DNA of 64,000 nucleotides, from the IMG/VR virus record IMGVR_UViG_2897352509_000007; one strand, 5' to 3'. Source of the DNA: a virus. Taxonomy: Duplodnaviria > Heunggongvirae > Uroviricota > Caudoviricetes. This document shows positions 21,001 through 24,000 of this stretch, in pieces; the stretch's first letter is position 1; every line of letters begins with the position of its first letter. Position numbers: made by a program.

Positions 21001-24000
21001 TTCAAGGTCGATCATTAGATGGTCACACGTCCTGCTGGTGGATGTGATAATGCGATGACCGTTCACCGTAATTAAGGGATCTGCCGTCTCGCCAGTTTCA
21101 CTATCGCTGGCGTGGTCCTGAGCGCTGCCAGCATTCTCCTTGTGTGGATGTTCAGCGCCTTCCATTTTCTCCGAATCGTCTTCCTGAACTTCAACCAGGT
21201 TCTTGTCATCGAATGTTTCCTGGTATGTTGCGTCGCCCATCACCGCGCCACAATCAGGGCAGTTGCCGCCACTCCTCTGACCGCAGGCGGTGCAGATCTT
21301 TTCCGGTTCCTGTTGCACTACTGGTTCAGGTTGTTTCGTTTCTGGCTCGTTTTGTTGCGTATTTGGGCTGTTCTGTTCCGCTTTCTGGTCGTTCTGTTCC
21401 GTTTCTGGCTGATTCTGGTACACAGAATCGCGGGTCTGGATCCCCTTAATCCATTTCGGATCATTCGGGTCGCTAATCCCTTCAACAAATTCTCCGCGAG
21501 AGGCAGCCAGTAATTTGTCTGCATCGACAGGATTTTGGGGCGGAATGTTTTTCCGGGCTTCATGGAGTTCTGCCCGCAGTTTCTGATATTTCGCATCAAC
21601 AGAATTTATCTGTGGCTGAGCATCCATCGACTGCGTGTCCTGATTATGTTCAGTTGTATCCGGTTCCACTGCTTCAGTCGTTGCCTGTTCATCTGCCATT
21701 GCGCCAGATGGCTGCGGTTTTTCTTCATCATCCTGTTTTCCTTCTTTTGTTACACGCTGCGGCATTGGAGCAGAGGAGCGACCGCAGGCAATATCCACGA
21801 TTTCTGGATCAGGGTTGGCATGGTCGGTTTCGGTCAGTACTTTGTTCAGATATTCGGTAACACGGTGGGGAGTAGCCTCGATACCAATTGGTGCTTCTTT
21901 CACGGACGCAACCACTATCGCGCGGGAATAATCCAGGTGACCAGGCATGGCGATGAATTTGTCACGAAAAACAGAAAAGGGCGGCTTATTCTCTGAAACG
22001 ATTTCTTCAATGCGTTTGGCGTGTGCCGGATGTGGATTGTAAATATCGATGTCCATTGAACGGGCCAGAACGCCAGCGGCAACGTCACGTTCTACTGACG
22101 CATCATCGTGGACAAAACTTTCACCGCGATCGGTAAGAATTCCTCCGCCAGCATTAGCGCCGGATGGCGTGCGGCTGATGCGTAAAACACGATTTCCTTT
22201 CATCCACTCTTTTGTCAGCAGACCTCGATCGGTATAGTCAGCGTCCAGGTATGCTTCGAAAAAAGCAGTCATTAACCCCAGACTGGAATTAACGGGATTA
22301 GGGAAAACTTTGTCTGTGTCGCGTACCAGTTTGTGAAGGTCGCGAATCTCCAGCGGGTCGAGCAGCTTTGTGTTGTGGGAAATAGCCAGGGCAGTAACAG
22401 CAGGCAGTTCTTCAGCTCGTGCGATATGTAATGCCTGAAGTTCTTCCCGTGAAACGTGCGTTACCGGTTTTTCGCTGCCATGTTGCGCAAGCCAGCGAAT
22501 GGGCAGTTCCTGACCGGAAATCGGCAGGAGCATATTATCCTCAATCTCAGCCATGTCTTCGCCATTGACGTTGGTATTGTCAGAGCTGGCTGGTTTGTCC
22601 TGAACTGAGGGGGAAGGCGCTATAAATATCATTGTGATGCCATCTTCCCCGCCTTTTTCATAGCGGTTGCAGAATTCAGTATCGAACACACCTTCAGGCG
22701 GCAGGTCATTAACAATGGGCAAATTCACGCGAACAGGTTTTTTGAAATCCTCTTCGTCAAATCCAGCATCGTCCATTGCGACAACACCCCGTGATATTGC
22801 AACCGATAATTTTTTTGCTGTGCGCCAGTAAAAACCGCCTTTAATCCCAAGGCGTTTTCTGACTTTGTCATTTTTGGCTTCGTAATACAGTGCAATTTCT
22901 TCTTTATCAGTGCTCATTGATAAACCTCATAACTATTTTAAGGTTGTACGAATCCCTGCCATTGCTGGCATGCTTAATCAACGGGTATGGCGTTAATACG
23001 GCTGGCGGGTTATCCAGCCGGTATTTCGTTATTCAGGTACAGCGATACTTTGTTTAACGGGAGACATTCACCGGAAATTTTTTGCTCGTCTCTTGCCTGA
23101 TGGCAGGATTCTTTACTGGCATAAATTCCGGTAATCACATTCTGTGGCTCACCTGTTATAAGAAAAACCGTCATCATCAGTGCAAACGCTGAACTCACTG
23201 CTGCCCTCCGAAAATGCCAAGTTCAAGAAGGGCAATTCTGGAGAGTATGGAATTATCATTGAGAAGATAAGGCTCATATTTTCTCATCCTGATGGCGTCT
23301 TCAGTAAACTCCCGGTTACTGAGCAGAATACCAATATTAAAACACCCTTCAGACGTATTAACGTTTGGTAGTGACGTTTCCATTATCGCGTCCTCAACAA
23401 TGAATTTTGTGATGTGGTGCCTGGTGCCTCCAGGTGACGTTAACCAGTTAACAATTAACGCCGGAATACAGAATCACCCATAACGCTGTTTTTAGCTTTA
23501 ACTGTTCCGCGTGCGCTCAGCCGCATTCACCACATCACAAAATTCACTTTAAAAAGGGCGGCAGAGCAGTCACGGAGTAAAACTGATACCGCCAAACGTC
23601 ACCAGAAAATTGATAACAGAAGGCGTTGCAGCGGGGTTGTCACTTAAGCGTATGGTCAACCTGACAACCCGGTGTCCTCAACGGGGAAGAAATAACCCCG
23701 CCATACTTACCGCCGCACCATTTCGCGGGTTGCCACAACCGGAAGCGCACGGTCGACGAAAATTTAACGACAGGCTATCTATGAACCAGCTACCTCGCCG
23801 TGCGCTTTCGCGTTATGGTCTGACTTTTCAGGGAAATATCCTTTCAGTAAACTGTCAGTGCCGGATGCTCACCCGCGTCCGGCGCACGCACTCCACCTCA
23901 CCCGTGGAGAACTACTTAATTACCAACCTTAGCTTCGTTGGTTAGCTATTAACGCGGGTATGTAATCATTCTGGCAATGCTTAATGCCGCTGCTTTTTCC

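Follow-up and report, generated by a model that had tools for sequence, protein, structure and literature searches.

Stems of about two helical turns in long transcripts are cut by RNase III, which separates functional RNAs from one another, as at the lambda N leader, the T7 R1.1-type sites and the 16S and 23S rRNA stalks. In the Qin prophage of Escherichia coli K-12, RNase III processing on the 3′ side of the small RNA (sRNA) DicF has been known since the work of Faubladier, Cam and Bouche in 1990 (as cited in PMC5069750, PMC9438474 and PMC5371410), and the first two of these papers, citing that work, attribute the 3′-end of the 72-nt form of DicF to this enzyme. The orthologous locus analyzed here lies in a 64,000-nt stretch of DNA from a virus of the Caudoviricetes (IMG/VR record IMGVR_UViG_2897352509_000007; hereafter, the window), in which a 19-bp perfect inverted repeat is located between dicF and dicB, the gene for an FtsZ inhibitor. 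In our reading, which we regard as highly probable, the arms of this repeat form an RNase III-cut, lengthened closing helix (P1) of a domain that resembles the core of the STnc100 sRNA and stands directly before dicB. The published descriptions of the K-12 RNase III site that were consulted do not mention an enclosed structured domain.

Two further systems are close to this locus. The sRNAs of the STnc100 (RF02076)/PasD/EcOnc27 type are described in the literature as late-region, Hfq-binding RNAs, and consist of a core with a 6–9-bp P1, a tail of about 40 nt and a Rho-independent terminator; the same core has been found as free-standing expressed sRNAs (PMC5331693). The dic element has in common with them P1, the hairpin P2 (bearing a bulged A and a UNNGC loop), P3, a pseudoknot with the loop of P4, the invariant junction nucleotides, and the hairpin P5, CCNGG-AGGCA-CCNGG, stacked on P1. 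It differs from them in having no promoter or terminator of its own, a P1 of about 21 bp, and a P2 and P3 that are different but compensatory, and in its position inside an early-left operon directly before a start codon. The second system is the KilS-kilR spacer of the Rac prophage, in which a DicF-like sRNA, KilS (PMC8175672), ending in GCCGCCCUUUUU is followed by AAAG, by a long-stem element (59.4 bits with the covariance model R1 described below) and then by a gene for an FtsZ inhibitor; the K-12 copy (L245) occupies 1418259-1418402 on the minus strand of NC_000913.3, between KilS (b4833) and kilR. This spacer differs from the dic spacer in being followed by kilR instead of dicB, in the one-nucleotide bulge and wobble pairs of its 3′-arm and, in the K-12 Rac copy, in a mismatch at the foot of P5, where CCAGA replaces CCAGG. 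The KilS-kilR stem has no reported RNase III site: the match in Table S1 of Gordon 2017 (PMC5371410), at 1418510 (‘kilR-sieB’, 41 vs 0 reads, rnc-dependent and not flagged as known), is upstream of KilS, 8 nt from its 5′-end. The recurrence of the same layout, an sRNA terminator, a long stem and a division inhibitor, suggests a role in controlling how toxic division inhibitors are expressed from the long early transcript. The dic stem resembles the rRNA stalks in that it too encloses a structured RNA, and the lambda N leader in its position shortly before an early-left gene's ribosome-binding site, but it has no sequence relationship with the lambda N, T7 or rRNA sites.

The arms of the repeat, 23401-23419 (TGAATTTTGTGATGTGGTG) and 23528-23546 (CACCACATCACAAAATTCA), are 19 nt long, complementary at 19/19 positions and separated by 108 nt, and a repeat search recovered them as the initial annotation of the window had described. 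The window contains no longer spaced perfect inverted repeat than this pair, and when its sequence was shuffled 100 times, perfect inverted repeats with arms no more than 300 nt apart reached at most 10–14 nt. The span originally assigned, 23401-23547, covers the repeat but ends one base beyond the arm; in the minus-strand RNA, 23547 (G) contributes a G.U pair and 23548 (A) an A-U pair, which brings the helix to 21 bp. The placement between dicF and dicB was confirmed by matches to the Rfam DicF model and, for the open reading frame (ORF) at 23383..23195 (minus strand), to Pfam DicB (PF05358, E 7e-34), both genes being on the minus strand. The DicF sequence is identical to that of K-12 dicF annotated in NC_000913.3, and its terminator hairpin ends at 23556. 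The dicB start codon is 17 nt beyond the 3′-arm, with the base of the stem at −18/−16 and the Shine-Dalgarno sequence (SD) at −12..−8 relative to the AUG. The features of the spacer and its borders are as follows.

23556..23608, minus strand: DicF sRNA, 53-nt form (Rfam RF00039, 76.7 bits, E 4.5e-16, match 23607..23556)
23551..23555, minus strand: U-tract of the DicF terminator
23528..23548, minus strand: 5′-strand of P1 (19-nt arm 23546..23528 plus the extensions 23547-23548)
23537/23536, minus strand: probable RNase III cut in the 5′-arm, between UGAAUUUUGU and GAUGUGGUG, placed from K-12 identity 71 nt on from the DicF 5′-end at 23608, that is, after 23537
23399..23419, minus strand: 3′-strand of P1 (19-nt arm 23419..23401 plus UU)
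23195..23395, minus strand: dicB (SD GAGGA at 23395-23391, AUG at 23383, 62-aa DicB)

Folding of the minus-strand transcript 23620..23380, which had been proposed as a check, gave a minimum free energy (MFE) of −88.1 kcal/mol (z −5.2), and in both the MFE and the centroid structures a multibranch loop is closed by a 21-bp stem, in which one G.U and one A-U pair supplement 19 Watson-Crick pairs. The long-range RNA stem predicted for the dicB-sense transcript is further borne out by covariation and by strand-specific G.U wobbles. Homologues were gathered from IMG/VR by the motif TCACCNGGAGGCACCNGGCAC, from which 98 distinct elements were extracted, and an alignment of 33 distinct operon-embedded homologues (A2) was prepared. 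In this alignment P1 comprises 20 pairs, 98% of the cells are paired, and 10 of the 20 pairs show compensatory changes on both sides; none of 500 shuffles matched the observed covariation values, and slid controls were 31–41% paired. The repeat is thus conserved across the 33 homologues, and absence from homologous dic loci was the observation that the initial annotation had named as fatal to its proposal. Three unrelated outer-stem sequences, beginning UGAAUUUUGUGAUG, CAGACCUUGCAAUG (L029, L034 and L082) and CAGGCUUUAAGGUG (L138, from Citrobacter), all retain about 19–21 bp, and G.U pairs are frequent in the P1 of homologues whereas A.C oppositions are rare. The K-12 dicF-dicB spacer, the comparison originally suggested, has the same helix, interior domain and dicB leader; the two loci are identical from the start of DicF to the end of the 5′-arm, and the variable insert of the interior differs by small indels. 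The window stem is perfect, whereas that of K-12 contains two wobble pairs: its 3′-arm begins CACUGCAUCA against CACCACAUCA in the window, so that a G-C and a U-A pair become G.U and U.G. Since these pairs are valid solely in the dicB-sense RNA, the helix acts as minus-strand RNA. Its length, 21 bp here and 20–22 bp in homologues, provides the uninterrupted double-stranded RNA of about two turns (20–22 bp or so) that characterizes RNase III sites. A natural ‘no stem’ allele exists at L111, which retains dicB, the 3′-arm and, from CCGACGTTAATTG on, the 3′-half of the element, with unrelated sequence in place of the 5′-arm, P2 and DicF; the recombination breakpoint lies within the variable insert.

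These data also bear on three readings in which the repeat is not a processed RNA helix. A perfect 19-bp inverted repeat in an element that behaves as a mosaic module, recombining between phages, might be a palindrome that works at the DNA level, as a protein-binding site, cruciform or recombination site, yet this is exceedingly improbable: the G.U and U.G pairs of the homologues would be mismatches in DNA and in the RNA of the opposite strand, many G.U pairs becoming A.C there, the arm sequence is freely swapped, up to wholesale replacement, while pairing is kept, and the 108-nt spacing is occupied by an RNA fold with covariation of its own. That the arms are the terminal inverted repeats of a small mobile insertion, like those of a miniature inverted-repeat transposable element, would fit the presence of a bounded unit of about 150 bp in several genomic contexts, but is very unlikely, because the flanks AAAG and TTGT form no target-site duplication such as an insertion sequence would leave, the stems of free-standing relatives measure just 6–9 bp, and the arms are wholly different between subtypes where the interior core is conserved, the opposite of what transposon ends show. 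No empty site with a duplicated target was seen, nor any transposase recognizing the arms. The covarying arms, the wobbles and the replaced arm sequences together rule out both the DNA palindrome and the transposon ends. There is likewise little room for a second intrinsic terminator or attenuator before dicB, an idea that the very stable hairpin-like structure within the leader might invite and that we hold to be most improbable: the 3′-arm has no trailing U-tract (CAAAAUUCAUUGUUGAGG), and the arrangement of a G+C-rich hairpin and then a U-tract is not seen after 23401; a terminator scan found no minus-strand terminator-like site after the 3′-arm; and a 1,608-nt ydfABC-dicFB-ydfD transcript exists in K-12 (PMC10448788).

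The position of the known processing event can be placed on the helix. In NC_000913.3, dicF occupies 1649382-1649434 and the 5′-arm 1649444-1649462; nucleotide 72 of DicF is 1649453, which is the 10th nucleotide of the 19-nt arm, at the center of the helix. As the window is identical to K-12 from the DicF 5′-end through the arm, the cut maps between 23537 and 23536. For the K-12 copy, which has the same sequence from DicF to the arm, others have shown RNase III-dependent processing at this position (PMC5069750 and PMC9438474), and Table S1 of Gordon 2017 (PMC5371410) has an entry at 1649470, ‘intergenic dicF-dicB’, marked ‘Known’, with 26 reads for the rnc deletion vs 0/0 for the wild type. 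The proposal that an RNase III site in this repeat releases DicF is supported by the 72-nt end at arm nucleotide 10 and by this table; processing at the helix is supported and already known in K-12, and in the window strain it would follow from sequence identity.

The events may be pictured in the following way. Transcripts of the early-left (dicB) operon would read through the DicF terminator, and the arms would pair into the P1 of about 21 bp, closing a domain of about 125 nt made of helices P2–P5 and a pseudoknot. Lengthened from the 6–9 bp usual in the family to about 20 bp, P1 would thereby become an RNase III substrate, and a mid-stem cut would create the 3′-end of 72-nt DicF and part the ydfABC-DicF portion from the dicB mRNA. 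RNase III usually leaves a 2-nt 3′-overhang, and by this geometry a second cut can be inferred in the 3′-arm at about 23409/23408, which would free a core RNA of about 128 nt and leave dicB with a leader of about 25 nt. The changed leader would alter the translation or stability of dicB: processing could either activate its translation, as at lambda N, or destabilize the mRNA, as in the manner of pnp and rnc.

Several points weigh against this reading. The cut in the O157-type copy is positioned by its identity to K-12, and Ragunathan 2023 (PMC10448788) describes RNase III solely for the upstream 5′-end of a 190-nt DicF. The signal in Gordon 2017 amounts to just 26 reads, and its coordinate, 1649470, is of coarse resolution and falls 8 nt inside the domain. 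Wild-type coverage of the K-12 dicF-dicB domain is 0, which speaks against a stable excised core under the conditions used, and tables derived from RIL-seq list dicF and ydfC.dicF among Hfq-bound RNAs, with no dicF-dicB entry; together, the zero coverage and the missing RIL-seq entry count against the excised core being a stable, Hfq-bound RNA in laboratory-grown K-12, in which the operon is repressed. Partition-function estimates of the effect on the dicB ribosome-binding site are ambiguous. The family-wide invariance of P5 derives partly from the search pattern, although copies found by the model only still keep it. The differing accounts in the literature can be compatible if there are two RNase III sites. 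A second hairpin, interrupted and of about 22 bp (CAUAACGCGAAAGCGCACGGCGA...UCGACCGUGCGCUUCCGGUUGUG), lies in the ydfC-dicF spacer at 23740-23810 (minus strand), and the 5′-end that RNase III is reported to create for the 190-nt DicF, at 137 nt upstream of DicF, falls at about 23745, in the 3′-strand of this hairpin; DicF thus appears to be bracketed by two RNase III stems.

The 108-nt interior, which the initial annotation passed over apart from its palindromes, is a conserved structured RNA domain; with its closing helix, it has the following parts.

23548-23528 with 23419-23399, minus strand: closing helix P1
23524-23509, minus strand: hairpin P2, GCGGC-UGAGC-GC-A-CGC, 5 bp with a bulged A and a UNNGC pentaloop
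23508-23506 (GGA) with 23465-23463 (UCC), minus strand: helix P3, which surrounds the variable insert
23504-23498, minus strand: 5′-strand of the pseudoknot, CAGUUAA
23466..23497, minus strand: variable insert within P3, differing in length and sequence among homologues (A2 columns 55-108)
23462-23436, minus strand: hairpin P4 (GGCGUUAA / UUAACGUC), with compensatory changes in 5 of 8 pairs
23451-23445, minus strand: 3′-strand of the pseudoknot, UUAACUG, in the P4 loop
23434-23420, minus strand: hairpin P5, CCUGG-AGGCA-CCAGG, stacked directly on the 3′-strand of P1

The two palindromes pointed out earlier are accommodated here: CCTGG...CCAGG is P5, and GTTAAC-cag-TTAAC belongs to P4 and the pseudoknot strand. 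Three pairs of P2 are compensatory relative to STnc100 (CCCCC-UGUGC-GG-A-GGG), and the stem of P5 covaries (CCGGG/CCCGG, and CCAAG/CUUGG in Arsenophonus) around an invariant AGGCA loop. The longest pseudoknot helix formed by each sequence's own strands averages 6.8 bp vs 4.45 bp with shuffled loops (69 distinct strand combinations), and the pairing strands are of many different sequences, such as AUCAGCA/UGCUGAU, CCAGUC/GACUGG, CUGGUGU/ACACCGG and GACUGAUUAG/UUAAUCAGUU. UGAAU, CUnnGCG (the P2 loop) and UcACCnGGAGGCACCnGGCA are invariant throughout the family, in part through the search pattern, although copies that the model alone found retain them, and among 109 distinct sequences, from E. 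coli to Arsenophonus, the unpaired UGAAU, CUnnGCG, UCA and AGGCA remain invariant amid covarying helices. The riboswitch and ribozyme models of Rfam 15 gave no match to the domain, and a search by E-value of 20000-28000 returned DicF and STnc100 only. A small ORF on the minus strand (MGDSVFRR, then a stop) was rejected, since it falls in the variable insert and K-12 does not keep its frame intact. A riboswitch operating through alternative pairing of P2 with a terminator was also considered, as in the late-region STnc100 copies of E. coli the 5′-half of the terminator, GCCCCUCUCC, complements the 3′-strand of P2, GGAGGGGC; the unrelated terminators of other subfamilies, together with a 21-bp P1 that is not switchable, led to its rejection. 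An antitermination RNA like put of HK022 would be inconsistent with free-standing copies that end at their own terminators. A tRNA-like reading, with P5 stacked on a P1 of 7–8 bp, is mentioned as an idea only.

The relationship with STnc100 was examined at two levels. The Rfam STnc100 model (RF02076) spans the whole spacer (39.8 bits, E 4.6e-6, full model 1-206) but the score remains below its gathering threshold of 47 bits, which none of the operon-embedded copies reached across 6 loci; the low scores are due largely to the absence of the 5′-leader and the 3′-terminator. A genuine STnc100 is present in the same window at 35569-35761 (plus strand, 144.5 bits), and the dic element aligns with it through GGUGAAU and UCACCNGGAGGCACCNGGCACCA. 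A covariance model, R1, built from 65 free-standing cores only (alignment A3) and including no dic-type sequence, matches 23540..23408 (minus strand) over positions 1-118 of 118 with 69.7 bits (E 7e-18), and matches all operon-embedded copies at 54-70 bits. The common core structure and the conserved core nucleotides are both present, as R1 and the compensatory P2, P3 and P5 pairs indicate, and by these sequence comparisons the spacer domain is homologous to the core of STnc100/PasD.

Two classes of element can be distinguished within the family. In 57 of the 65 free-standing copies P1 measures 6–9 bp, vs 20–22 contiguous bp in the embedded class. Free-standing copies are often preceded, a few nucleotides before P1, by sigma70-like hexamers (TTGACA-17-TAAATT, identified by eye), are followed by a tail of about 40 nt and a terminator, and in some cases form tandem arrays. 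The dic element is not an independent transcription unit with its own Rho-independent terminator, and a scan of 23100-24300 found no sigma70-like promoter site for dicB or the core. Members of the embedded class always stand 12–53 nt before a start codon, and the genes on their 3′ side encode DicB, KilR (phrog_294, E 1e-36), other small proteins or 36-aa hydrophobic peptides. At L029, L034 and L082 the long-stem element occurs with no DicF-like sRNA upstream, a distribution that links the element with the gene that follows it and not just with the release of DicF. Of 5426 complete E. coli genomes, 4641 (about 85%) contain a match to the 155-nt element, and nearly all of the matches listed lack an annotated feature there. 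A scan of contigs with a 15-nt pattern proved too unspecific, R1 confirming 5 among the first 100 of 120 loci (one each from Citrobacter, E. coli and E. albertii, and two from Arsenophonus), and the taxonomic breadth of the element is thinly sampled.

The pseudoknot of STnc100, in which the P4 loop pairs with the stretch that follows P3, covaries strongly (for example, L005:1647-1768, L010:2322-2460 and window 35593-35709); it is missing from the nested structure line of Rfam STnc100, and the 2026 Pas-sRNA preprint, in which PasD and STnc100 are compared, nowhere uses the word ‘pseudoknot’. The window holds two paralogous copies of one RNA core in different operons. The late-region copy belongs to an RNA cluster with a weak tRNA match at 35424-35483 (37 bits) and, downstream of STnc100 (35569-35761, plus strand), AgvB at 35763-35824 (minus strand, 96.5 bits); just 3′ of this cluster lies a 648-aa ORF (35972-37918), a putative nanS-p-like gene by its adjacency to STnc100 and the account of esterase genes in the Pas preprint. 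Tandem arrays of 2–5 STnc100-like genes, spaced about 250–270 nt apart and each with its own terminator, occur on the IMG/VR contigs L010, L022, L088 and L105, with tRNA genes beside the arrays in L010 and L022, and isrI-like RNAs as neighbors in L088 and L009. P1-like phage-plasmids (pVP441; phages D6 and P7) carry a dic-type core minus the long arms (query positions 18-139, about 82–84% identity), and the core of pVP441 (L123, 54612-54732) lies in a tRNA cluster between tRNA-Ser and an SPFH-domain gene. At L013:4747-5234 the order is DicF, long-stem element, IsrK-like RNA (65.5 bits) and C4 antisense RNA (77.9 bits), which joins a dic element to a P1/P7-type immI (c4-icd-ant) region; the downstream ORF that overlaps these RNAs (MLNVAIENQ...) is probably spurious. 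A dic-type core with a P1 of about 9–12 bp at L159:1442-1572 (minus strand; E. coli SCPM-O-B-8794) has a DicF-like sRNA downstream rather than upstream, so that the two RNAs can occur in either order.

Two other accounts concern what the helix and the domain are primarily for. One, already offered by the initial annotation and compatible with the RNase III-processed closing helix, is that the element serves chiefly for translational control of dicB, which we hold to be less likely than not: the helix lies 3–5 nt from the SD, an outer extension would block ribosome access, and an RNase III cut or melting would relieve the block, as at the lambda N leader. The spacing of stem base, SD and AUG given above fits this account, as does the constant placement of the element directly upstream of a start codon. 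In the MFE structure the dicB SD GAGG pairs with the terminator CUUU, and when one bulge is allowed UUUUUAA comes to face UUGAGGA in a helix of 28 pairs, so that the read-through U-tract, by weak predicted pairing with the SD region, may extend the helix. In the Rac/kilR type the U-tract faces an A-tract just 5′ of the SD, a different sequence in the same geometry. The U-tract extension is weak, however, containing three G.U pairs, and lies outside the covarying core; computed accessibility is mixed, the SD being unpaired with a probability of 0.25 in the precursor vs 0.8 in the processed RNA while the AUG becomes paired; and at L029, L034, L070 and L082 the start codon is 45–53 nt beyond the stem, too distant for steric occlusion. 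The other account, that the enclosed domain is the functional unit, as a protein- or ligand-binding RNA or a trans-acting RNA, with P1 a mere closing helix whose cleavage is maturation or incidental, strikes us as rather doubtful. The invariant unpaired nucleotides amid covarying helices and the covarying pseudoknot, across the 109 distinct sequences, are what such a role would predict, and the core recurs in the expressed free-standing sRNAs (PMC5331693), in tandem arrays and in P1-like phages; against this stand the lack of any match to Rfam riboswitch or ribozyme models, a perfect P1 of about 20 bp that is too stable for a ligand-controlled switch helix, and the zero wild-type coverage inside the K-12 domain. 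It is similarly doubtful that the core of about 125 nt is itself a functional RNA, be it a fold that binds a protein or small molecule, or a second regulatory RNA that two RNase III cuts would free from the dicBF and KilS-kilR transcripts. Were that so, the lambdoid prophages of most E. coli genomes would carry a structured-RNA module whose closing helix is lengthened where excision from an operon is needed, and this module would be common to STnc100/PasD sRNAs, division-inhibitor leaders and P1-like phages.

The repeat is situated in the early-left operon of a ‘PPompW’-type lambdoid prophage. According to the annotation of an identical O157:H7 record, ydfC/B/A-like genes and a dicA/dicC-type immunity pair lie on the 5′ side of DicF, and exonuclease, xis and int genes, adjoining ompW, lie on the 3′ side of dicB. 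The dicB operon we take to be pL-like, by analogy from established knowledge of the dic locus. The same prophage contains a hok/sok-type locus, with a sok antitoxin RNA at 30338-30512 (RF01794, 111.7 bits), near the position of which hokD is annotated in the identical O157 record.

The RNase III processing itself is long known, and the identity of P1, a lengthened helix that closes an STnc100-like pseudoknotted domain before division inhibitors, appears to be unreported in the literature searched. The dicF-dicB and KilS-kilR spacers, found in about 85% of complete E. coli genomes and lacking annotation in RefSeq, hold a pseudoknotted member of the STnc100/PasD family that is supported by covariation and missed by the Rfam threshold. 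This embedded class differs from the free-standing sRNAs mainly by a closing helix of RNase III length, and always stands immediately before small toxic genes, namely those for the FtsZ inhibitors DicB and KilR and for short hydrophobic peptides. These features offer a model in which prophages would gate the expression of division inhibitors post-transcriptionally, through a conserved RNA fold that belongs to a family already linked to the regions of Shiga-toxin phages.

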